IMG/VR virus record: IMGVR_UViG_3300040801_004793
Coordinates: 1 to 64,000 of that record
DNA from: a virus
DNA: 64,000 bases
Reading direction: 5' to 3' (one strand)
Within the stretch, counting starts at the first letter, position 1, and each line of letters starts with the position of its first letter. The notes below the pieces were generated by a model. It saw only the letters and a program-made list of their open reading frames with translations, did no database searches and was not told the DNA's origin. This document shows positions 4,557-39,001 of the stretch, in pieces. The position numbers and the translations under genes are program-made.

Positions 4557-5294
4557 ATGATGCAGTATCAAATGCGCTTGATTCCAGGGGGCACCTTCCT
4601 GATGGGTTCTCCTGAGGACGAATTGCATCACTATGAAGAGGAAGGCCCTCAACACCAGGTCACTGTTCCCACTTTTTTTATGAGCCGTTACCCTGTCACT
4701 CAGGCTCAATATCAAAAGGTGATGGGTACGAATCCCGCCGCTAGATATCCTGATCGCTTTGTTGCTCTCAATAAACCCGTTATAGGGGTATCTTGGGTGG
4801 AGGCTGTAGAATTCTGTAAGCGTCTTTCCAACACTCAACAAACCTATCGCCTGCCAACGGAGGCCGAGTGGGAATATGCCTGTCGCGCTGGAACCACAAC
4901 CCCATTCCATTTCGGCCCCACAATTACGACCGACCTGGCGAACTACAATGGATCTTCGTCTTACGACTTTGGCCCTAAAGGGCAGTATAGAAGGCAGACA
5001 ACCGAAGTAGACAGCTTTCCGGCCAATGCTTTTGGTCTGTACGACATGCACGGTAACGTCCGTGAGTGGTGCCAAGATACTTGGCATTCCGACTATGAAG
5101 GAGCCCCTACAGACGGAAGAGCCTGGATAAGCGGTCTTGAAAAAAAAGTGATTCGAGGAGGGGGCTGGTCGTGTTTGTCTATGACCTGTAGATCAAGCTT
5201 CAGATTCTACGGGTTTCCGACTGAAAAGTACAGCTCTATCGGTTTTAGGGTAGTCTCGGATTACATCAGTCCTTTTCAAGCTTTTGGTTTTTAA
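4557..5294 (+). CDS. FGE-sulfatase (SUMF1-family) / CLec-fold protein, array copy 1
   Basis: IPGGTFLMGS, RLPTEAEWEYACRAG, NAFGLYDMHGNVREW, RGGGW...GFRV motifs; tail PFQAFGF. Confidence 0.95.
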   Translation: MMQYQMRLIPGGTFLMGSPEDELHHYEEEGPQHQVTVPTFFMSRYPVTQAQYQKVMGTNPAARYPDRFVALNKPVIGVSWVEAVEFCKRLSNTQQTYRLPTEAEWEYACRAGTTTPFHFGPTITTDLANYNGSSSYDFGPKGQYRRQTTEVDSFPANAFGLYDMHGNVREWCQDTWHSDYEGAPTDGRAWISGLEKKVIRGGGWSCLSMTCRSSFRFYGFPTEKYSSIGFRVVSDYISPFQAFGF

Positions 5295-5296
5295 TT

Positions 5297-6055
5297 ATGG
5301 ATCTCATTAAAATAACAAGAATTCCGGGTGGATCTTTTTTAATGGGGTCTGAAATATATGAGTATGAATCTCCTAAACACGAGGTCACTGTTCCCACTTT
5401 CTTTATGGGTATCTACCCCGTTACCCAGGCTCAGTATAAAACTGTAATGGGTCACAACCCCGCTACTAGGTACGATGTAGAGAACTTTGTTTCTCCCAAT
5501 AAACCCGTCGTAGGGGTAAGTTGGCATGATGCACAAGTCTTCTGTCAGCGTCTAACCGAGTACAGCGGCAAAAATTACCGCCTGCCTAGCGAGGCTGAAT
5601 GGGAATATGCTTGTCGGGCAGGCACCACAACGCCTTTCTACTTTGGCGAGACCATTACGTCTGAACTCGCCAACTACAATGCTGCCATCAACAGTTATAA
5701 TGGTAGCCCGAGAGGTGAATATCGCCGAACAACTACCTGTGTAGGTCAAGTGGGCGTCGCCAATGCCTTTGGTCTCTACGATATGCATGGCAATGTGTAC
5801 GACTGGTGCCAGGATACGTGGCACGACAGCTATGACGGTGCCCCCGCTGATGGTAGCGCTTGGACGAATACCGATAGCCAAACTTATACAAAAAGCAGTG
5901 AAAACAAAGTGATTCGAGGAGGCTCCTGGATGAGTGCGCCTAGCCTCTGTGAAGCAAATTACCGTTCTTACGAATGGAGTGCCGAGGAATCTGCTTTTAT
6001 TGGTTTTAGGGTAGCTTGTGATTACATTAGCCCTTTTCAAGCTTTTGGATTTTAA
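5297..6055 (+). CDS. FGE-sulfatase/CLec-fold protein, copy 2
   Basis: RLPSEAEWEYACRAG, GLYDMHGNV, RGGSW...GFRV; tail PFQAFGF. Confidence 0.95.
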   Translation: MDLIKITRIPGGSFLMGSEIYEYESPKHEVTVPTFFMGIYPVTQAQYKTVMGHNPATRYDVENFVSPNKPVVGVSWHDAQVFCQRLTEYSGKNYRLPSEAEWEYACRAGTTTPFYFGETITSELANYNAAINSYNGSPRGEYRRTTTCVGQVGVANAFGLYDMHGNVYDWCQDTWHDSYDGAPADGSAWTNTDSQTYTKSSENKVIRGGSWMSAPSLCEANYRSYEWSAEESAFIGFRVACDYISPFQAFGF

Positions 6056-6057
6056 AA

Positions 6058-6849
6058 ATGACTAATGATGATATTCCCAAAATGGTACTAATTCCAGGGG
6101 GAAGCTTCACTATGGGCTCTAATAAAAATTCATACGATACTCCTGAAGAAGAGCCTGCTCATAAAGTCAACGTTTCTTCTTTTCTTCTAGGAAAATATCT
6201 AGTTACTCAAGATCAGTACCTTAGCGTAATGCAATCTAACCCCGCTCATTTTAAAATAAATGGGGGCAATCGGCCAGTTGAAAACGTTTCTTGGGAAGAA
6301 GCTAAGATCTTCTGCTTGAATTTATCAGAAAAAACGGGTCAATCATTTCGTCTACCTAGCGAAGCAGAATGGGAATACGCCTGTCGTGCTGGTACCACAA
6401 CCCCCTTTTATTTTGGAAATACAATAAATACCGATCAAGTTAACTTTGACGGTTATTATCCTTTCTTTGATTCCTCTATTAACGAAACCCTCATACACTA
6501 TGGGGGAGAAAGACGGCTAGAAACTACCCCCGTAGGTTCTTTTCCCCCTAATTCTTTTGGTCTATATGATATGCACGGGAATTTATGGGAATGGTGTGAT
6601 GATGTTTGGCATCCAAATTATAAGGGTGCGCCTATAAAAGGAGGTCCTTGGCTTACTAAAGGTATTACAAATAAAAAGGTGGTACGAGGGGGCGGTTGGG
6701 ATTCATTGGGTATGGAATGTAGATCAGCCTCTCGTCGATATGCTCCTTGTACGTATAAGGGTCTTAATGTCGGAATTCGAGTAGCTTGTAGTCTGGACCC
6801 GCTCACTAGCTTTTTAAACCCGATCGCTTTCCAGTCTCTAGGATTTTAA
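6058..6849 (+). CDS. FGE-sulfatase/CLec-fold protein, copy 3
   Basis: Same motifs; tail AFQSLGF. Confidence 0.95.
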   Translation: MTNDDIPKMVLIPGGSFTMGSNKNSYDTPEEEPAHKVNVSSFLLGKYLVTQDQYLSVMQSNPAHFKINGGNRPVENVSWEEAKIFCLNLSEKTGQSFRLPSEAEWEYACRAGTTTPFYFGNTINTDQVNFDGYYPFFDSSINETLIHYGGERRLETTPVGSFPPNSFGLYDMHGNLWEWCDDVWHPNYKGAPIKGGPWLTKGITNKKVVRGGGWDSLGMECRSASRRYAPCTYKGLNVGIRVACSLDPLTSFLNPIAFQSLGF

Positions 6850-6851
6850 TA

Positions 6852-7592
6852 ATGACTAAGTTACCAAGAATGGCACTAATTCCAGGGGGATCTTTTATGA
6901 TGGGGTCTTCCAAAAATGAAGGAGACCCTAATTCAACCGAGTGTCCTCAACGTGAGGTAACCGTGCCGCAGTTCTGGATGGGGAAATATCCAGTCACCCA
7001 AGCCCAATATGAAGCGGTGATGGGTAAGAATCCCTCCAGGTTTTCTAAGAATGGAGCCAACCGTCCAGTAGAAAGAGTGGGTTGGAATAATGCTATGGCA
7101 TTTTGTCAGAAGCTCTCCCAACAAACTGGGCAGAAATATCGCCTCCCTAGCGAAGCTGAATGGGAATATGCTTGTAGAGCGGGAACGGAGACCCCATTTC
7201 ATTTTGGGGAGACTATCACCACTGATCTTGCTAACTATTGCGGCCTTTCAGAGTATAACGGCGGTCCCACGGGAAAGTTTTCAAAGGCCACGACCGAAGT
7301 AGGTAGTTTTCCAGCCAATGCCTTTGGGCTGTACGACATGCACGGCAATGTATGGGAGTGGTGTCTAGACCGTTGGCACGAGAGCTACTATGGAGCACCA
7401 ACTGACGGCAGTGCTTGGACAACAGGAGGTGATCGCTCCAGACGAATTCTGCGGGGCGGTTCGTGGTACGAATATCCTAAGCATTGCCGCTCGGCCTCAA
7501 GGGGGTCTACCTTGGAAGACACAGCTCTTAATAGCGTAGGTTTTCGGGTTGTTTGTCATTACACACCCCCTTTTAGCAGTTTTGGTTTTTAA
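6852..7592 (+). CDS. FGE-sulfatase/CLec-fold protein, copy 4
   Basis: Same motifs; tail PFSSFGF. Confidence 0.95.
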   Translation: MTKLPRMALIPGGSFMMGSSKNEGDPNSTECPQREVTVPQFWMGKYPVTQAQYEAVMGKNPSRFSKNGANRPVERVGWNNAMAFCQKLSQQTGQKYRLPSEAEWEYACRAGTETPFHFGETITTDLANYCGLSEYNGGPTGKFSKATTEVGSFPANAFGLYDMHGNVWEWCLDRWHESYYGAPTDGSAWTTGGDRSRRILRGGSWYEYPKHCRSASRGSTLEDTALNSVGFRVVCHYTPPFSSFGF

Positions 7593-7594
7593 AA

Positions 7595-8368
7595 ATGGTT
7601 ACTAAGGATATTCCTGAAATGGTATTTATCCCCGGAGGGTCTTTTATGATGGGGTCTTCCACGGATGAAAGAAAAAGTAGTTCAAGTGAGAGACCTCGAC
7701 ATAAAGTTACGATACCTGATTTTTACATGGGACGGTATCCAGTAACCCAAGCACAGTATAAATTTATAATGGGTAAAATTCCTTCTCCTTTTTCCCGTCA
7801 AGGAGATAATAAACCCGTAGACTTAGTAAGTTGGAATGAAGCCGTAGCATTTTGCCAAAAGCTCTCAGCGGTCACGTCTAAAACGTATAGATTACCTTCT
7901 GAAGCCGAGTGGGAATATGCCTGTAGAGCAGGAACTACTACGCCTTTTTACTTTGGGAAAACTATTACCACTGACCTTGCTAACTATTGCGGTTGCTCGA
8001 CCTATGGACAAGTGCCAAATAGTCTTTACCGAAAGGAAACTACTACAGTAGGCAGCTTTCCGCCCAATGCCTTTGGTCTTTACGACATGCATGGCAACGT
8101 ATGGGAGTGGTGCCAGGATGTGTGGCACGACAGTTATCAGGGAGCCCCCAGCGATGGCCGTGCTTGGACAGAAGGCAACACCTTCACGCAAGAGAGGCGA
8201 GTTTTACGTGGAGGCTCCTGGAGCGACATTCCGTGGTATTGCCGGTCCGCGTGTCGTTCCAGCAACTATGCCGACAACCGCTACATCCTCAATGGTTTTA
8301 GAGTAGCTTGTGATGACCCCAGCACTCTTCTGTTGCCCTTTACTCCCTTTATCTCCTTTGGATTCTAA
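7595..8368 (+). CDS. FGE-sulfatase/CLec-fold protein, copy 5 (DGR-type variable region)
   Basis: Same motifs; tail PFISFGF. Confidence 0.95.
   Translation: MVTKDIPEMVFIPGGSFMMGSSTDERKSSSSERPRHKVTIPDFYMGRYPVTQAQYKFIMGKIPSPFSRQGDNKPVDLVSWNEAVAFCQKLSAVTSKTYRLPSEAEWEYACRAGTTTPFYFGKTITTDLANYCGCSTYGQVPNSLYRKETTTVGSFPPNAFGLYDMHGNVWEWCQDVWHDSYQGAPSDGRAWTEGNTFTQERRVLRGGSWSDIPWYCRSACRSSNYADNRYILNGFRVACDDPSTLLLPFTPFISFGF
8213..8299 (+). repeat. DGR variable-region-like repeat (copy 5)
   Basis: 87-nt GGCTCCTGG...TGCCGGTCCGC...GGTTTT; differs from sister repeats mainly at codon positions 1-2 of NNC/NNT codons. Confidence 0.75.
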
Positions 8369-8419
8369 AAATATCCGCTTCTCGCTGAGATCTTGTAATA
8401 CTTGTTTTTGAGAAAAAAA

Positions 8420-9193
8420 ATGAAGCGCTTTACAGAACAACTTCATGGGTATATTGTGCCCCTGGAAATGATCCATATCCCCGCTGGCATCTTTCTCATG
8501 GGCTCTCCTGAAAAGGAAAAAGACCGATTTGGAGATGAAGGCCCTCAGCATGAGGTCATCGTCCCCACTTTTTTCATGGGGCGCTACCCCATCACCCAGG
8601 CCCAATATGAAGCGGTGATGGGCACCACCCCCGCCACGAAATATGAGGCTGATCGCTTTGTCGCTCTCAATAAACCCGTTGTGGGGGTGAGCTGGAAGGA
8701 TGCCGTTACCTTTTGCACCGCCCTGGCCCAGCGCACGGGTCGCCCCTATCGCTTACCTTCTGAAGCAGAATGGGAATATGCTTGCCGCGCTGGGACTACA
8801 ACGCCTTTCTACTTTGGGAGCACCCTCACTACCGAGGTTGCCAATTACGACGGTAACTACACCTATGGTGAGGGTCCGACAGGTGAATTTCGCAACGCCC
8901 TCACCTCTGTAGACCACTTTGAGGTTGCTAACTCCTTTGGCCTCTCAGACCTGCACGGCAATATCTATGAGTGGTGTCAGGATACGTGGCACGACAACTA
9001 TGAGGGGGCACCGACCGATGGCTCGGCTTGGGTAGACGGGGGCTATTCAGACCAAAAGGTTATCCGTGGTGGCTCCTGGAACAACATTCCGAGGGATTGC
9101 CGGTCCGCGTATCGCCTCAACCTCAACGCCGACAACCGCTACAACGACTTCGGTTTTCGTGTTTGTTGTGCTGCCCCTAGCAATCTTTTGTAG
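8420..9193 (+). CDS. FGE-sulfatase/CLec-fold protein, copy 6 (most host-like, lacks FGF tail)
   Basis: ATG at 8420; FTEQL..VPLEMIHIPAG N-terminus; GC-richer; ends AAPSNLL-TAG. Confidence 0.93.
   Translation: MKRFTEQLHGYIVPLEMIHIPAGIFLMGSPEKEKDRFGDEGPQHEVIVPTFFMGRYPITQAQYEAVMGTTPATKYEADRFVALNKPVVGVSWKDAVTFCTALAQRTGRPYRLPSEAEWEYACRAGTTTPFYFGSTLTTEVANYDGNYTYGEGPTGEFRNALTSVDHFEVANSFGLSDLHGNIYEWCQDTWHDNYEGAPTDGSAWVDGGYSDQKVIRGGSWNNIPRDCRSAYRLNLNADNRYNDFGFRVCCAAPSNLL
9071..9157 (+). repeat. DGR variable-region-like repeat (copy 6)
   Basis: 87 nt, retains six AAC codons. Confidence 0.75.
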
Positions 9194-9219
9194 TCCTTCG
9201 TCTCCTTTGAATTCTAAAA

Positions 9220-9966
9220 ATGATTAGTAAATGTATTCCTGAAATGGTATTTATTCCAGGGGGATCTTTTATGATGGGAGTCTCCACAAATGAAAGAGGG
9301 GAAAGTGAGTCTGAGAAACCTCAACATAAAGTTACTGTACCCGCATTTTACATGGGACGATATCCGGTCACCCAAGCCCAGTATAAATTCATAATGGGTG
9401 AAAACCCTTCTCATTTTTCTCATCAAGGAGATAATAAGCCTGTAGAAAGAGTGAGTTGGAATCAAGCCACGGCATTTTGTCAGAGGCTCTCAGAGGTCAC
9501 GTCTAAAAAATATAGATTACCCTCCGAAGCGGAATGGGAATATGCTTGTCGGGGCGGGACGACAACCCCCTTTCACTTTGGGGAAACTATCACCTCTGAC
9601 CTTGCCAACTATGACGGTAGCGTGATCTACGGAGAAGAGCCACGAAGTACTTACCGAAAGGAAACCACTGAGGTCGGTAGTTTTCCACCCAATGGTTGGG
9701 GCCTTTATGACATGCATGGTAACGTGTGGGAATGGTGTGATGATGAATGGCATGGTAATTACCAGGGAGCTCCCATAAACGGATCACCTTGGTTAGAAGA
9801 CGATGATAGAGGTAGAAGAGTTCTACGTGGCGGCTCCTGGGACTACGGCCCGAGGCTTTGCCGGTCCGCGTTTCGCTACTTCGTCTATGCCGACCAAAGC
9901 TGGGACGATACCGGTTTTAGAGTAGCCTGTGATTACAAACTTCCTTTTCAAGCTTTTGGATTCTAA
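9220..9966 (+). CDS. FGE-sulfatase/CLec-fold protein, copy 7
   Basis: Same motifs; tail PFQAFGF. Confidence 0.95.
   Translation: MISKCIPEMVFIPGGSFMMGVSTNERGESESEKPQHKVTVPAFYMGRYPVTQAQYKFIMGENPSHFSHQGDNKPVERVSWNQATAFCQRLSEVTSKKYRLPSEAEWEYACRGGTTTPFHFGETITSDLANYDGSVIYGEEPRSTYRKETTEVGSFPPNGWGLYDMHGNVWEWCDDEWHGNYQGAPINGSPWLEDDDRGRRVLRGGSWDYGPRLCRSAFRYFVYADQSWDDTGFRVACDYKLPFQAFGF
9832..9918 (+). repeat. DGR variable-region-like repeat (copy 7)
   Basis: 87 nt, aligns without gaps to the other three. Confidence 0.7.
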
Positions 9967-9968
9967 AA

Positions 9969-10715
9969 ATGACTAATAATGATATTCCTGAAATGGTATT
10001 TATTCCAGGAGGATCTTTTATGATGGGGTCTTCCAAAAATGAAAGAGACGGAAGTTCGTCTGAGAAACCTCAACATAAAGTTACTGTACCCGCATTTTAT
10101 ATGGGACAGAGCCCGGTCACCCAGAACCAGTATCAAGCAGTGATGGGTAAAAACCCTTCTTATTTTTCTCATCGGGGAGATAATAAACCCGTAGAATTAG
10201 TAAGTTGGAACGACGCCATAACATTTTGCCGAAAGCTCTCCCAACAGACAGGTCGGAAATATCGCTTACCTTCTGAAGCAGAATGGGAGTACGCTTGCCG
10301 AGCTGGAACCACAACACCTTTTTATTTTGGGGAAAGCATCACCACTGACCTTGCCAACTGTGCCGGTATCCCAGGCAATGGCGTCATGGCGGCAAAGGAT
10401 AATTACAGACAGAAAACCACTGAGGTCGGTAGTTTTCCACCCAATGCCTTTGGTCTCTACGATATGCACGGAAATGTATGGGAATGGTGTGAGGATGTGT
10501 GGCACAGCAACTATGAGGGGGCTCCTACAGACGGTAGTGCCTGGACAGAAGGCAACAACCAAGAGCGAGTTTTACGTGGAGGCTCCTGGAACGACATTAC
10601 GGGGATTTGCCGGTCCGCATTTCGCTACAGCAGCTATGCCGTCTGCCGCGATGTCGTCGGCGGTTTTAGAGTAGCTTGTGATTACACACCTCCTTTTAGC
10701 AATTTTGGATTCTAA
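9969..10715 (+). CDS. FGE-sulfatase/CLec-fold protein, copy 8
   Basis: Same motifs; tail PFSNFGF. Confidence 0.95.
   Translation: MTNNDIPEMVFIPGGSFMMGSSKNERDGSSSEKPQHKVTVPAFYMGQSPVTQNQYQAVMGKNPSYFSHRGDNKPVELVSWNDAITFCRKLSQQTGRKYRLPSEAEWEYACRAGTTTPFYFGESITTDLANCAGIPGNGVMAAKDNYRQKTTEVGSFPPNAFGLYDMHGNVWEWCEDVWHSNYEGAPTDGSAWTEGNNQERVLRGGSWNDITGICRSAFRYSSYAVCRDVVGGFRVACDYTPPFSNFGF
10581..10667 (+). repeat. DGR variable-region-like repeat (copy 8)
   Basis: 87 nt, aligns without gaps to the other three. Confidence 0.75.
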
Positions 10716-10720
10716 AAATA

Positions 10721-11428
10721 ATGACTTCTCTGATTGAGGTAGTAACAATTCCTTCAGGTACTTTCCTAGGTAAAGACTCTAATCAAATTTACGTACCTGG
10801 TTTTTATCTTTCTAAATATCTGATAACACGAAAAATCTGGAATTACGTAACACAGTTACCAGAAGTAAACACTCCTTTAGTTTCGACTGTAGATATTCCC
10901 GAGCTTTACCAGAATCCCGTACGAGGGGTGTCTTACTGGGATGTTTTAGAGTTTTGTAATCGAATCTCCAGTAAGACAGATCAGTATAGATTACCTACTG
11001 AAATTGAATGGGAATATGCTTGTAGAGCTGGCACTACAACAGCTTTCTACTTTGGAGGTATAGGAGACGCAAGTATAGAAAAATTTAATCATCTCGATTT
11101 GAAACTCTCTGCTACCTCTCACTTTCAAAGCCATAATAGTATTCATCCACATCAAGTTAATCGTGTTAATTATTACCCTCCAAATCCCTGGGGTTTACAT
11201 GATATGCATGGTAATTTGTGGGAGTGGTGTAAAAATAGTAAAGAAAATAAAACGGAACAAGAATCAGATAACTGGCCTGCAATTCTCAAAGGGGGATCTT
11301 GGAGAAGTCCCGCAAGGTCTTGTCAATCCAGTTCAATAATTTCTTTCCCTAAAAATTACAGGAACACTCACGTTGGATTTAGAGTCGTTCTAGAGAGACC
11401 CACTCAATTTGGTGCTTTTGGATTTTAA
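10721..11428 (+). CDS. divergent FGE-sulfatase/CLec-fold protein, copy 9
   Basis: RLPTEIEWEYACRAG, NPWGLHDMHGNLWEW, KGGSW...GFRV; tail QFGAFGF. Confidence 0.9.
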   Translation: MTSLIEVVTIPSGTFLGKDSNQIYVPGFYLSKYLITRKIWNYVTQLPEVNTPLVSTVDIPELYQNPVRGVSYWDVLEFCNRISSKTDQYRLPTEIEWEYACRAGTTTAFYFGGIGDASIEKFNHLDLKLSATSHFQSHNSIHPHQVNRVNYYPPNPWGLHDMHGNLWEWCKNSKENKTEQESDNWPAILKGGSWRSPARSCQSSSIISFPKNYRNTHVGFRVVLERPTQFGAFGF

Positions 11429-11433
11429 AAAAA

Positions 11434-11646
11434 ATGACAAAAAAGCGTAAAACGAAAAAAGAATTAGAACAAGAAAACGAGAAGCTTAAAGAAAAAATAG
11501 AAAAAAATCAAAGAGTAGTAGAAGCTGCTAAGGGAGAAGTTGAGGTTTTGAGGGGAACATTACAAAACTTTGTGGCCCCAGAAAACAGAGAGGCTTACCA
11601 CACTCTAGCGGATAACATTAATTCTATACTCGATGAGACTAAGTAG
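11434..11646 (+). CDS. small coiled-coil protein
   Basis: 70-aa ORF, K/E-rich heptads. Confidence 0.6.
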   Translation: MTKKRKTKKELEQENEKLKEKIEKNQRVVEAAKGEVEVLRGTLQNFVAPENREAYHTLADNINSILDETK

Positions 11647-11697
11647 TTTTTTTTCGTTGGTGAACCACGGGGGTATAAAAATACCCCCTTTCTTAAA

Positions 11698-12381
11698 ATG
11701 AAAATTTTTTTAAAAAGCTCTCACTCAAAGGAGTTTTGTAAAATTCCATCGGGAACTTTTCTCCTATTTGAAAAGCAACTTTTTATTCCCGAATTTTACC
11801 TCGCTCTTAATCCAATCTCGATTTTTGATTTTCACTTAATTTTTGATATTCCCTTGAGTCCAAAATATCAGGAGTCTAATGGATTTCTTGCAAAAGTAAC
11901 ACCTTACATTGGAATAAGACCTTTTGAAGCAGAAAAAATTTGCAGCTTTTTAAATTTTCAAACGGGACTTAAAAAATTTAGAGTACCCACAGAAAACGAA
12001 TGGGAATATGCTTGCCGAGCCGGTAGCACTAGCCCTTTTTATTTTGGTGATGAAGACCACCCCGCTGTTGAGGATCTTGTAAATTGCGAGAGTAATTATA
12101 AACTTCCCTGGTCTTTTCTTGCTTTTACCGAAGAGCGTCATCCCTACGGTCTTAGAGGTATGCACGGAAACGTACGAGAGATATGTCTCAGTCGATACCA
12201 CAAATCGCCTGCAAAAAAAGGGTATTGCTGTCGTGGAGGAGATTACACATCTAAAAAAAATATGTGCTACTCTGCATCAAGGCTGCCTTGTCTCGACTTT
12301 GGAAGAAAAGGGAAGCAGGGATTTAGACCCCTATTAGAAAATATAGATCTATTGAATACAGGAAACCCTTCAATTCTGTAG
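11698..12381 (+). CDS. divergent FGE-sulfatase/CLec-fold protein, copy 10
   Basis: RVPTENEWEYACRAG, GLRGMHGNVRE, RGG...GFRP; no FGF tail. Confidence 0.85.
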   Translation: MKIFLKSSHSKEFCKIPSGTFLLFEKQLFIPEFYLALNPISIFDFHLIFDIPLSPKYQESNGFLAKVTPYIGIRPFEAEKICSFLNFQTGLKKFRVPTENEWEYACRAGSTSPFYFGDEDHPAVEDLVNCESNYKLPWSFLAFTEERHPYGLRGMHGNVREICLSRYHKSPAKKGYCCRGGDYTSKKNMCYSASRLPCLDFGRKGKQGFRPLLENIDLLNTGNPSIL

Positions 12382-14627: not shown

Positions 14628-15323
14628 ATGCATATTTATGAAGTTGGTGGTCACGTAAGGGATAAGCTGCTAGGAATTTGCAGCAAAGATATTGACTACC
14701 TCGTAGTGGGTTTGGATAGTTATCGTGATATGATTCAAACCCTGCGAGATCAAGGTTTTACCATTCTACACGAGTACGCCGACAAGTTTACAGCCGTTGC
14801 TAGGGACAGCTATGGTAGGCCAGTAGACTTTGTTTGGGCTAGAGGCGGGGAAATCTATAAAAATGGAAAGCTAGTTCATGTGAGACCTGGAACTTTGCAA
14901 GAAGACCTATCCCGTCGAGACTTTACCATTAATGCGATGGCAAAAGATTCTACAGGTAAGATTCTTGACTTTTTTGGTGGGCAAAGAGATCTAAAAGAAG
15001 GAGTCATTCGAGCCGTAGGAAAACCAACTGAAAGATTTGAGGAAGATCCACGAAGGATTATTAGAGCCATAAGATTTCGAGTTCAACTCTCAAAGCTTAC
15101 GGAAAGATCTTTCGAGTTTGATCAACCTACTTATTGGGGTATGGTAGAGGCTCTACATCTCTTGGCTGAAACTCGGTATAAAGATAAAATTCGAGAGGAA
15201 CTAAATCGAAGTTTCACGTACGATGCTCTCCTGACTCTTGAGACTTTAAAGCTCGTAGAGGGGCTGCAAGAGTTATTATTCCAACAACTGAATCTGAAGA
15301 TCAAAATTACACAAGAAAAATGA
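14628..15323 (+). CDS. cca: class II tRNA nucleotidyltransferase (CCA-adding enzyme), minimal form
   Basis: VGGHVRD, DID, EDLSRRDFTINAMA, DFFGG, EDPRRIIRA motifs; AGGAG RBS. Confidence 0.9.
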   Translation: MHIYEVGGHVRDKLLGICSKDIDYLVVGLDSYRDMIQTLRDQGFTILHEYADKFTAVARDSYGRPVDFVWARGGEIYKNGKLVHVRPGTLQEDLSRRDFTINAMAKDSTGKILDFFGGQRDLKEGVIRAVGKPTERFEEDPRRIIRAIRFRVQLSKLTERSFEFDQPTYWGMVEALHLLAETRYKDKIREELNRSFTYDALLTLETLKLVEGLQELLFQQLNLKIKITQEK

Positions 15324-37264: not shown

Positions 37265-39001
37265 ATGGATAAGAATACTGGTATACGGGTAGTAACCTCC
37301 TGTTCTAACCCTCTAACATTAACCTACCTAGCTGCTCATAGGGATTATTCCGAATGTTTATCGGTTATGGATTCTCCTCCCTCTTATTTACCTAAAACAG
37401 AGGAAGAAGCGGGGGAAAAAATTCTTAGAATGCTTCTAAAAAAGAGGCACTTTGGTCCGTTAGAGCACCCTCACGCTACAGTAGAAGTCGTAGGCTTTCC
37501 CCACAGCGTTGCAGTTCAGGCCAGAACTCATAGAATTGCCTTTTGCCTGGATGAAGATACCCGTATTCAATTTTCTCGCAAGCCTCAAAAAAGAGGGAGA
37601 AGAGTACAAAATTATTCTGTTCCATTAAAAGATCTAGCTAATCTATGGTTTAACGGAATCAAAGATCAACGAGATCCCTACTTTGGAAGGCACTATGTTA
37701 GGGATAAAAGACTTCGGTATTTTAATCCCTCCACTAAAAAGATTGAATACACCAACATTACTAATATTTATAATACGGGAGTTAAAACTCTATATAAAGT
37801 TTCTACTGAAGGAAATAATTTCATTCAAGGTTCTGAAGACCATAAAATTCTAACAACCAACTCTGATCTATCTTCTTTTGAGTGGAAAGAGATTAAAAAT
37901 CTTACAACAGAAGATTATGCAATTCGCATGTCTTATAAACCTAATAATCCACCAGTAAAAGAAGATATTACTTTTACTGAAGAACAGTTGGAATCTGAGG
38001 AGTGGCGTCCAGTAGTTGGTTTTGAAAGATACTACCAGGTTAGTAACTTAGGTCGTTTGCGAAGTTTATTTGATTCGGAGCCTAAACTAAAATCTGTTGT
38101 CACAGGCCCAACGGGTTATAAATATGCTTCTCTTCATAGAAAAGAAATCATCTACTTACATACAGAAGTATTAAAAGCTTTTGTAGGACCTCCGCCGGAA
38201 GGAAAAAATAAGGCTTTACATAAAGACGACAATCGTAAGAATAACTGTCTTTCTAACTTATATTGGGGAGATAGCTCTGACAACCAAGCAGATCTAACGA
38301 GAAATGCCGGAGGCAGATCTTTTCAACCCGTACCGGCTAAAATTATTTCTATTGAATGTGTAGGCGAAAAACAGACCTATGACATTGAAGTAAAAAGTAA
38401 ATATAGAAACTTTTTTGCTAATAATCTCGTAGTTCATAATAGCTTTGATGTACAAAGTCAAAGGTATACGGGAAAAAGAGTAGTTGATTTAATAAATATT
38501 TTTCTAGAGTTATTTCCCGATAGAGATCCCAATGGTGAAGGTAGAAGGCTAATAATTTCAAAACTTCTACAGAACGAAGAACTCTCTGAAAAAGAAAGAC
38601 ACTTTGTAGATCAGTTACAAAAAGTTTTTTACGTTAGACCTGCTGGAAAATATCATAATAGGCAAGGGAAAAGATACGAAGTTAGCGAAGAAGAAGTCTT
38701 AAAAAGATACTTCTTTAACAAAATTTCATCCTCTCTTGACTACTATGATCTTGTTGTTACTAAGGGTGTGGCTGAAGAAGATGCCAGGGATGATCTGCCT
38801 CAAGGAATAAGGCAAGGTTTTTTTATGACCTTTAACCTTAGATCTTTGATGCATTTTCTTGATATGAGGTATAAAGCCGATGCCCAGCCGGAAATTATCT
38901 ACTTGGGAGAACTTTTAATAGAATTTTTTAAGGTCTGGGCAGGGCCGGTAGCAGAGTTCTATATCAAAAATAGGGCAAATAAAAACAATGTTGCACCCTA
39001 A
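37265..39001 (+). CDS. thyX: flavin-dependent thymidylate synthase interrupted by an intein
   Basis: HFGPLEH, QARTHR...SFDVQSQRY, EDAR..LP, NLRSLMHFLDMR...AQPEI. Confidence 0.93.
   Translation: MDKNTGIRVVTSCSNPLTLTYLAAHRDYSECLSVMDSPPSYLPKTEEEAGEKILRMLLKKRHFGPLEHPHATVEVVGFPHSVAVQARTHRIAFCLDEDTRIQFSRKPQKRGRRVQNYSVPLKDLANLWFNGIKDQRDPYFGRHYVRDKRLRYFNPSTKKIEYTNITNIYNTGVKTLYKVSTEGNNFIQGSEDHKILTTNSDLSSFEWKEIKNLTTEDYAIRMSYKPNNPPVKEDITFTEEQLESEEWRPVVGFERYYQVSNLGRLRSLFDSEPKLKSVVTGPTGYKYASLHRKEIIYLHTEVLKAFVGPPPEGKNKALHKDDNRKNNCLSNLYWGDSSDNQADLTRNAGGRSFQPVPAKIISIECVGEKQTYDIEVKSKYRNFFANNLVVHNSFDVQSQRYTGKRVVDLINIFLELFPDRDPNGEGRRLIISKLLQNEELSEKERHFVDQLQKVFYVRPAGKYHNRQGKRYEVSEEEVLKRYFFNKISSSLDYYDLVVTKGVAEEDARDDLPQGIRQGFFMTFNLRSLMHFLDMRYKADAQPEIIYLGELLIEFFKVWAGPVAEFYIKNRANKNNVAP
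37544..38440 (+). mobile_element. 299-aa intein with NUMOD4/HNH homing endonuclease
   Basis: Starts CLDEDT; block B SEDHKI; block F TYDIEV; ends VVHN before Ser; internal EEWRPVVGFERYYQVSNLGR and HKDDNRKNNCLSNL. Confidence 0.92.

Follow-up and report, generated by a model that had tools for sequence, protein, structure and literature searches.

The complete phage genome IMGVR_UViG_3300040801_004793 (IMG/VR; 121,016 bp with direct terminal repeats, CheckV completeness 100%) carries a tandem array of FGE-sulfatase genes, of C-type-lectin (CLec) fold, in its first 64 kb, the 64,000-nucleotide stretch that was analysed here and is called the window. Four of these genes contain, close to their 3′ ends, an 87-nt segment bearing the mutation signature of a diversity-generating retroelement (DGR). 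From comparison with cellular sequences it is very likely that the four segments are genuine DGR variable regions (VRs) of the cyanobacterial FGE/CLec-target class, derived from adenine-mutagenic reverse transcription of a template repeat (TR) of a cellular, cyanobacterial lineage. A DGR is usually viewed as a self-contained cassette, with reverse transcriptase (RT), template and targets in one genome. In this phage the segments are correctly read as DGR products; the evidence refutes a DGR borne by the phage itself and gives good support to an origin from a host-type DGR. As to how the VRs arrived, the reading that we favour, with a probability of about 0.4, is that cassettes written by host DGRs were captured by recombination and are now static orphans. 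The genes and segments concerned are these:

7595-8368, plus strand: p7595, a member of a phage-only clade, with VR1 (placed by the tree; FGF tail at its end)
8213-8299, plus strand: VR1, DGR-type variable region (exact scaffold match)
8402-9193, plus strand: p8402, a host-like gene with VR2 (tree, database relatives, GC content)
9071-9157, plus strand: VR2, the least diversified variable region (comparison with TRs)
9220-9966, plus strand: p9220, a member of the phage-only clade, with VR3 (list of open reading frames, tree)
9832-9918, plus strand: VR3, the variable region that has drifted most (nearest TR at 6 mismatches in 57 scaffold positions)
9969-10715, plus strand: p9969, a member of the phage-only clade, with VR4 (list of open reading frames, tree)
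10581-10667, plus strand: VR4 (nearest TR at 5 mismatches in 57 scaffold positions)

The window contains exactly four occurrences of the scaffold pattern GGCTCCTGG-N18-TGCCGGTCCGC, at 8213, 9071, 9832 and 10581, and 100 shuffles contain none. The original prediction, made from the window sequence, had described four 87-nt segments at these positions that align without gaps, and this alignment is borne out. Its description of the scaffold as nearly invariant holds as a general pattern but not throughout, since p7595 has CGT, p9969 has ACG and GCA, and p9220 has GGC together with the aberrant CAA AGC TGG at codons 22-24 of VR3. The predicted excess of changes at the first two codon positions is also present: across the four VR genes, the ratio of variable sites at positions 1 and 2 to those at position 3 is 29:8 within the segment, compared with 165:154 over the 202 upstream codons that serve as reference (Fisher p=0.0026). 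Degenerate codons whose amino acid is invariant are identical in all four genes at 8 of 10 places in the segment, compared with 22 of 83 upstream (p=0.0015). Amino-acid-variable codons of the segment mostly end in C or T, 62 of 72 doing so (C 45, T 17, G 9, A 1); upstream the third-base counts are C 114, T 123, A 120 and G 83. All four segments lie at gene 3′ ends, covering codons ~207-235 of proteins of 248-263 residues, as is expected of DGR targets. The prediction had counted four paralogs; four do carry the signature, but the array (4557-12381) holds ten, and the other six have ordinary, differing codons at the corresponding places.

Cellular DGRs of cyanobacteria supply the closest comparison. 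In a scan of one genome per species the exact scaffold was found at 36 loci across many phyla, the cyanobacterial ones including adenine-rich TRs. On a Leptolyngbyaceae contig (L015/L028) an RT gene (PF00078, 1.2e-19) is followed by a TR, with three VR-bearing FGE genes nearby, and these serve as a positive control: the three VRs differ from their own TR at 0 of 61 non-adenine positions and at 13-19 of 26 adenine positions. One FGE gene in the L028 neighbourhood is fused to NACHT, with a Trypsin-VMAP protein and an AAA ATPase beside it. A family of 35 distinct TRs was then assembled from a class-wide set of 401 cyanobacterial genomes and from all 173 and all 90 genomes of two orders (those to which genomes G001 and G345 belong), the larger being the order of a Leptolyngbyaceae metagenome-assembled genome (MAG) in which the closest sampled TR lies; overall ~660 cyanobacterial genomes were searched. 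TRs were defined by at least nine AAY codons per 29, those printed having 9-13, and among TRs, as among VRs, sequences identical over all 87 nt were counted once. Scaffold positions are the 57 that are non-adenine in at least 90% of TRs, and adenine positions the 25 that are adenine in at least 70%.

By this measure VR1, VR2, VR3 and VR4 show 4, 3, 6 and 5 mismatches, respectively, to the nearest TR at 57 scaffold positions, compared with 20-34 for the six sister paralogs; the three mismatches of VR2 are to the L015 TR. When all four phage VRs are set against the L015 TR, they differ at 10-17 of its 26 adenine positions and at 6-9 of its 61 non-adenine positions (13 and 6 for VR1), and VR2 differs from the TR of L127 by nine adenine and four non-adenine changes. 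The base spectrum at adenine positions is the same in phage and host VRs: the four phage VRs have A 47, T 26, G 21 and C 6 of 100, and 43 host VRs have A 506, T 263, G 232 and C 74 of 1075 (47, 24, 22 and 7%). The template that had been inferred from the four segments differs, by eye, at only 5 of 87 positions from the TR at L015:1339, which adjoins the PF00078 RT. With the scaffold this close to real TRs and the adenine-site spectrum equal to that of host VRs, the earlier reading of the codon pattern as a DGR product was right. The second half of the phage scaffold, TAT GCC GAC AAC CGC, also occurs in the VRs of L157 and L171, from another genome in the order of the Leptolyngbyaceae MAG. A scan of metagenomes for the scaffold recovered the L015/L028 organism alone, again, as L116, and a plasmid search with VR2 returned Acaryochloris plasmids alone, at 79%. 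The contigs at L116:6616 and L028:6702 are assemblies of one Leptolyngbyaceae contig, 99.95% identical, in which one VR codon reads GAC in one and GCC in the other; the difference falls on a template-adenine position, which hints that the host DGR is active.

The original prediction had reported neither an RT nor a template repeat in the window, and this absence extends across the entire 121,016-bp genome. PF00078 gives 0 matches and 0 candidates in the complete genome, and a phmmer search with the L015 RT against all phage open reading frames of at least 70 aa finds none, although the same search recovers the RTs of L003, L007 and L015. PF05635, for Avd, has 0 matches in the phage genome at E<=0.1. 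Nor does that genome hold a further scaffold copy at up to 5 of 20 mismatches, a blastn-short match longer than 16 nt outside the array, or a 29-codon window with at least nine AAY codons. The suggestion of a remote, multi-target DGR elsewhere in the phage is thus refuted. Since the phage has no RT, Avd or TR, the template information came from host cells. No TR that matches the phage VRs at every non-adenine base was found in the ~660 cyanobacterial genomes, and a TR without mismatches is likewise absent from the scans of viral contigs, of one genome per species, of genome contigs, of metagenomes and of plasmids. Among IMG/VR viral contigs the scaffold pattern has 0 matches, and no relatives of the phage were found there by way of its DNA polymerase.

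The four VR genes do not share one origin. A tree was built from the domain with VR and tail removed, using nine of the ten paralogs (p11698 was left out) and the 50 of 58 database proteins (P0002-P0029, P0125-P0154) that passed motif trimming and a length filter. In this tree p8402 is nested in a clade of cyanobacterial proteins (support 100/94), and p7595, p9220 and p9969, referred to below as the trio, group together (100/64) inside a phage-only clade with p6852 and p6058 (87/81). The closest database relatives of p8402 are 74-79% identical and of the Leptolyngbyaceae/Nodosilinea kind. Its GC content is 0.534, its GC content at third codon positions (GC3) of 0.595 is the highest of the array (others 0.27-0.49), and it retains a host-type end, ...APSNLL followed by a TAG stop. 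These properties support a separate capture of p8402 as a whole gene from a host. Repeated capture of already diversified host target genes had been among the earlier proposals, and for p8402 it is borne out by the host clade, the GC3, the host-type stop and a 51-nt leader of its own, behind which lies the likely start, an ATG at 8420. Among host genes, p8402-like backbone and phage-like scaffold gave no signal of going together (Spearman -0.27, p=0.14).

The VRs are younger than the genes that contain them. Between p8402 and the trio, third positions differ at 3-5 of 29 sites in the VR and at 108-125 of 203 in the backbone (p ~1e-5 to 1e-6), and within the trio 7 of 29 VR third positions are variable, compared with 103 of 203 in the backbone (p=0.009). 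A clock restricted to third-position transitions points in the same direction, weakly for each pair (p 0.016-0.25). In backbone, p6852 (66%) is as diverged from p9969 as p7595 (70%) and p9220 (68%) are; at this equal divergence p6852 has 20 scaffold mismatches and the trio 4-6. Pairs of phage VRs have 2-6 derived states in common, and unrelated pairs of host VRs have a mean of 3.0 and a 95th percentile of 6. Each VR is thus an independent draw that was installed after the phage paralogs had split. Because the VRs are independent of one another and younger than their backbones, host-type template information entered the phage lineage after that split.

The 3′ flanks bear the marks of host sequence as well, and the features behind the VRs are as follows:

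8300-8368, plus strand: VR1 3′ flank, homologous to what follows host VRs (aligned locally with the flank of the L120 VR)
9194-9217, plus strand: untranslated remnant of the array tail (SFVSFEF-stop), directly after the p8402 TAG stop
5270-5294, 6030-6055, 6825-6849, 7568-7592, 8340-8368, 9940-9966, 10690-10715 and 11400-11428: FGF-tail sites

The flank of VR1 has 38 of 50 identities with the L120 host VR flank, with a score of 28 that is reached by 0 of 200 shuffles (shuffle maximum 17), and the flank of p8402 aligns with host VR flanks at a score of 23, again reached by 0 of 200 shuffles. The alignment of the p7595 flank crosses the host stop codon, where p7595 reads TTG, and continues into the pyrimidine element CCCTTTAC found behind host VRs; translation through this type of element yields the p7595 tail ...LPFTPFISFGF. 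A tail of the form ...PFxxFGF-stop ends eight of the ten paralogs (...AFQSLGF in p6058). It is seen in none of the 116 top relatives of p8402, and among the 117 top relatives of p9969 it is seen in the phage's own four only. Because the p7595 flank aligns across the host stop into the host pyrimidine element, the FGF tail looks like a read-through of the host 3′ region. A scan of IMG/VR for the tail-junction pattern returned 33 loci, none with an FGE open reading frame, and these were set aside as chance matches. The 3′ flank was also considered as a footprint of a TR-derived complementary DNA (cDNA), with AGC in p7595 and p8402, AGG in host VRs and AGC or AGT in TRs; the marker is a single shared base and the idea was dropped. 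By alignment score, the p7595 flank lies slightly closer to the flanks of host VRs (28) than to those of TRs (25).

Behind host VRs a conserved pyrimidine repeat, CCCTTTGCC, is followed by a hairpin, GGCGC-GNA-GCGCC, and a T-run (L015:2403-2500, L028:6789-6886, L009:1261-1358 and others). This hairpin is a candidate target-recognition element of cyanobacterial DGRs. A GC-rich hairpin of this kind lies behind 19 of 46 host VRs, 1 of 36 TR flanks and 0 of 4 phage VRs, and the motif GGCGC-N3-GCGCC occurs nowhere in the complete phage genome. In the phage BPP-1, PMC3240598 reports that efficient homing needs the initiation of mutagenic homing (IMH) sequence and a hairpin, with a weak route that does not depend on the hairpin. 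Only VR1 and VR2 are followed by a degenerate, IMH-like CCCCAG stretch; an IMH-like GC run is missing from p9220 and p9969. The sequence behind GGTTTT is AGA GTA GCT TGT GAT in the three phage-clade genes, where the TR type would be CGN GTN NNN TGY.

Taken with these flanks, the scaffolds themselves suggest that the phage VRs are inactive at present. The four differ from one another at 3-6 of 56 scaffold positions. When host VRs are compared with their own TR, 13 of 18 have 0 differences at 56 scaffold positions, in a list of own-locus TRs that retains two host VRs with 8 and 18 mismatches, likely non-cognate; between TRs from different genomes the median difference is 9. Read data come from one run (X1), which holds 0.30 of the phage words in short contigs at depth 2-5, sister runs having next to none. 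One Logan contig of X1 spans 10509-10748, including VR4, with 0 differences, and the contigs leave ~8208-8286 without cover, a gap that carries no weight as evidence. Some X1 Logan contigs (window 4618-10512) join different paralogs, skipping 3915, 3147, 2487 or 1628 bases or running backwards. Such joins, which likewise count for nothing as evidence, probably come from chimeric assembly or from related host genes, the depth being low, rather than from structural variants. No tyrosine integrase was found in the phage.

Other viruses carry related genes. None of 79 FGE-homologue loci in IMG/VR has a relative of the L015 RT within 10 kb, and among ten larger IMG/VR records with such genes, four of them at least 90% complete, no RT match reaches the Pfam cut-off (a single record has a match, of 12 bits). 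In 103 pairs of related viral FGE genes, differences amount to 703 of 9579 positions in the VR and 1264 of 60573 upstream. The clearest pair, L040:10411 and L049:10293, differs at 5 of 600 positions upstream, 36 of 93 in the VR and 0 of 300 downstream, and the two scaffolds differ; L040, L043, L044, L045 and L049, near-identical to one another except mostly in the VR, are partial contigs, so that an RT may lie elsewhere in these genomes. Five cultured Fukuivirus genomes (Ma-LMM01, MaMV-DC, CH01, DL02 and DH01) have no RT (0 of 5). The FGE genes of these Microcystis phages, such as Ma-LMM01 gp062 (L207:3152, annotated 'kinase'), resemble the array genes in being 55% identical to p9969 and in having a VR-like 3′ end. 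They differ in their number, with 2-4 FGE copies per genome and no ten-gene array, in the lack of an FGF tail, and in host group and scaffold. Their VR differs between the LMM01 and MaMV lineages and is identical in the four MaMV isolates compared. Over a run of 37 nt that takes in variable codons, the Ma-LMM01 VR is identical to a VR found on p1, a plasmid of M. aeruginosa NIES-2481, which shows that capture or exchange occurs elsewhere too. Related DGR loci are present on Microcystis plasmids, and on p1FD4 an FGE target adjoins an annotated Avd. These comparisons cover the loci L207:3152, L208-L211, L212:5010 and L213.

How, then, did host-type VRs reach the phage genes? Under the reading that we favour, host genomes would be where the cassettes were written, and recombination would have brought them into the phage. 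In the case of p8402, where capture is certain, a whole gene was taken from the host; in the trio a short patch would have been replaced between the conserved ends of the scaffold (GGCTCCTGG ... GGTTTT), at a time when the paralogs were already distinct. The captured VRs would now be orphans that drift slowly, leaving the phage with a small library of lectin-fold binding tips. That recombination rather than cDNA was the route is what we infer, and several observations weigh against it. No donor was found: the largest number of derived states that a phage VR shares with any of 43 host VRs is 5-8, and the host-host maximum is 11. The patch crossovers would have to fall within ~9-15 nt of shared scaffold on each side, which is no easier than homology-guided integration of a cDNA, and the replaced tracts lie inside the TR limits, which cDNA templating fits at least as well. 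Instead of drift, the scaffold differences could reflect VRs taken from different host TRs. In the hairpin test a strict requirement of 5 bp was set, which no more than 19 of the 46 host VRs satisfy, making the absence of the hairpin behind the four phage VRs weak evidence, and the reads, which come from one run at depth 2-5 and as contigs only, do not bear on inactivity.

Live or recent retrohoming in trans is possible, if on balance unlikely. Here the host RT, Avd and TR-RNA would make an adenine-mutagenised cDNA that, during infection, replaces the homologous 87-nt tract of replicating phage DNA by means of short scaffold homology alone. Such a process would account for independent draws with the host spectrum in genes of the phage clade, for VRs that are younger than their backbones, and for a replaced tract that keeps within the TR limits, although this last feature is explained equally well by recombination in the sole stretch of high identity. 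There is also a laboratory precedent, reported in PMC3240598, in which a donor plasmid with avd, TR and brt rewrites the cassette on a replicating phage that lacks them; at least 8 bp of 5′ identity was enough, and the hairpin-independent pathway, though weak, was seen in that setting. The viral contigs L040 and L049, with near-identical flanks around VRs of different scaffold, would fit as well, as would L044, L045 and L049, which have one scaffold and differing variable codons. Against trans homing, no TR that matches all non-adenine bases was found in the 401 class-wide genomes, the 173 and 90 genomes of the two orders, or the genome-contig and metagenome scans, and the phage VRs disagree with one another at 3-6 scaffold positions. 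The trio continues beyond the VR in a sequence that is not of TR type, p9220 and p9969 lack the IMH-like run, and none of the four VRs has the hairpin. Finally, the lack of a detectable integrase implies no long residence in the host cell.

An alternative in which the DGR was once the phage's own is improbable. An ancestor would have taken a cassette from a cyanobacterium, diversified its paralogs and then lost the cassette by deletion, leaving the VRs as fossils, and the drifted scaffolds and missing cis elements are what fossils would show. However, no scrap of RT or TR survives in 121 kb, IMG/VR yielded no relatives of the phage, and p8402, a separate host capture with the same type of scaffold, would be left unexplained. 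The comparison with other viruses offers no support either, with an RT above the cut-off in 0 of 10 large IMG/VR records (the 12-bit match being sub-threshold) and in 0 of 5 cultured Fukuivirus genomes.

Very improbable, too, is a single old capture followed by tandem duplication and by point mutation under diversifying selection, with no later templating. The monophyly of the three phage-clade VR genes (100/64) would be expected, and the six other paralogs partly keep an enrichment in NNY codons (5-12 of 14). But VR silent third positions are less diverged than the backbones, the scaffolds fall into two classes of decay (3-6 and 20-34 mismatches) although their backbones are equally diverged, the variable codons share no more states than those of unrelated VRs, and p8402 has the same scaffold with a different origin. 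A cause other than a host-type DGR, whether a chance or selected codon pattern in a lectin binding loop, where the favoured Tyr, Ser, Asp and Asn are encoded by NNY codons, or a remote DGR elsewhere in the phage, has a negligible probability, given scaffold identity to real TRs that reaches silent sites, a base spectrum equal to that of host VRs, a scaffold match in 0 of 100 shuffles, and a complete genome without RT or TR.

We therefore return to captured, host-written cassettes as the preferred reading, and turn to the array in which they lie, whose rows are as follows:

4557-12381, plus strand: tandem array of ten FGE-sulfatase (CLec-fold) genes (list of open reading frames, PF03781, FGE profile hidden Markov model (HMM))
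4557-5294, 5297-6055, 6058-6849, 6852-7592 and 7595-8368, plus strand: array genes 1-5
8402-9193, 9220-9966, 9969-10715, 10721-11428 and 11698-12381, plus strand: array genes 6-10

PF03781 matches the four array members that were scanned with E values from 4.8e-59 to 1.6e-14, the two best being 4.8e-59 and 2.2e-51, and full-length cover, and the FGE HMM built for this analysis matches ten open reading frames in the complete phage genome. The array genes have GC contents of 0.38-0.53, compared with 0.393 for the genome, and most junctions between them are 2-5 bases, the exceptions being 26 bases before p9220, 51 before the likely ATG of p8402 and 269 before p11698. The array lies outside the structural module of the phage, and its proteins are bare domains without a visible signal sequence, as read from the translations. 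The virus is a phage, having almost every gene on one strand, a DNA polymerase, a ribonucleotide reductase, a helicase, a portal protein and ten tRNA genes. The tRNA genes lie at window positions 2451-30723; three are tRNA-Arg, two of which bracket the FGE array. At 14628-15323 a protein with a PolyA_pol head domain is likely a CCA-adding enzyme. The 578-aa open reading frame at 37265-39001 looks like an HNH-thymidylate synthase fusion: its middle part resembles HNH endonuclease PHROGs (best stretches 193-348), and its C-terminal part those of thymidylate synthase (best stretch 391-570).

Among known systems, the nearest are the cellular DGRs of cyanobacteria, described in PMC7517822 and PMC10907252 as having several or remote FGE-type targets and clade 5E RTs, and exemplified here by L015/L028. 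As in L015/L028, the phage VRs lie in the last ~55 codons of a PF03781 domain, match the scaffold with 3-6 mismatches of 57, have the same adenine spectrum, and occur in several targets that combine one scaffold with diverged backbones. Unlike those of L015/L028, they are found on a lytic-looking replicon without RT, Avd or TR, match no sampled TR fully and have no downstream hairpin, and the proteins are stand-alone with a phage-specific FGF tail. BPP-1 likewise has a phage gene with a C-terminal CLec-type VR, and homing in trans onto a phage without the machinery was achieved for it in the laboratory, as reported by Guo 2011 (PMC3240598). In contrast, BPP-1 has its own cassette, a tail-fibre target and homing through IMH and hairpin, and the source in the present case would be a natural host DGR.

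For the protein fold, p9969 matches the PDB sequences of PvdO (5hha, E 1.5e-41) and of TvpA, a DGR variable protein of T. denticola (2y3c, E 4.2e-25), and PF03781 covers the full length. TvpA differs in being a lipoprotein of a cellular DGR, and the likeness of the phage proteins to it is one of sequence. In a true FGE the catalytic site, with a cysteine pair and a copper site, would lie inside the VR. A binding role is likely for the phage FGE domains. Their host relatives belong to 'ternary' conflict systems of the VMAP/MoxR-vWA and NACHT kinds, in which FGS domains are diversified by DGRs (PMC7159879, PMC10907252), and are presented in these sources as hypervariable ligand-binding domains of NACHT and VMAP conflict systems and as proposed antigen sensors. 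The phage copies differ in being bare FGE domains, with no NTPase, vWA or adaptor domains. It is conceivable, though doubtful, that the phage copies host-written cassettes, by cDNA in trans or by patch recombination, onto effector-less lectin decoys that would bind the ligand of the NACHT/VMAP sensors and so blind them, with the FGF tail arising from read-through.

No description of host-templated VRs in RT-less cyanophages was found in the literature searched. This phage is a complete, RT-less virus with four targets in the style of a host DGR, at least three of them installed after its own paralogs had diverged, and the same RT-less condition is seen in five cultured Microcystis phages and in several near-complete uncultured ones. 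For annotators, this means that host genomes should be searched before an orphan VR in a phage is labelled a fossil. Phage genomes thus receive hypervariability that a cellular retroelement has generated, whether by capture or in trans, and because the host counterparts have been proposed as anti-phage antigen sensors (PMC10907252, PMC7159879), this flow of VRs could be part of an arms race.

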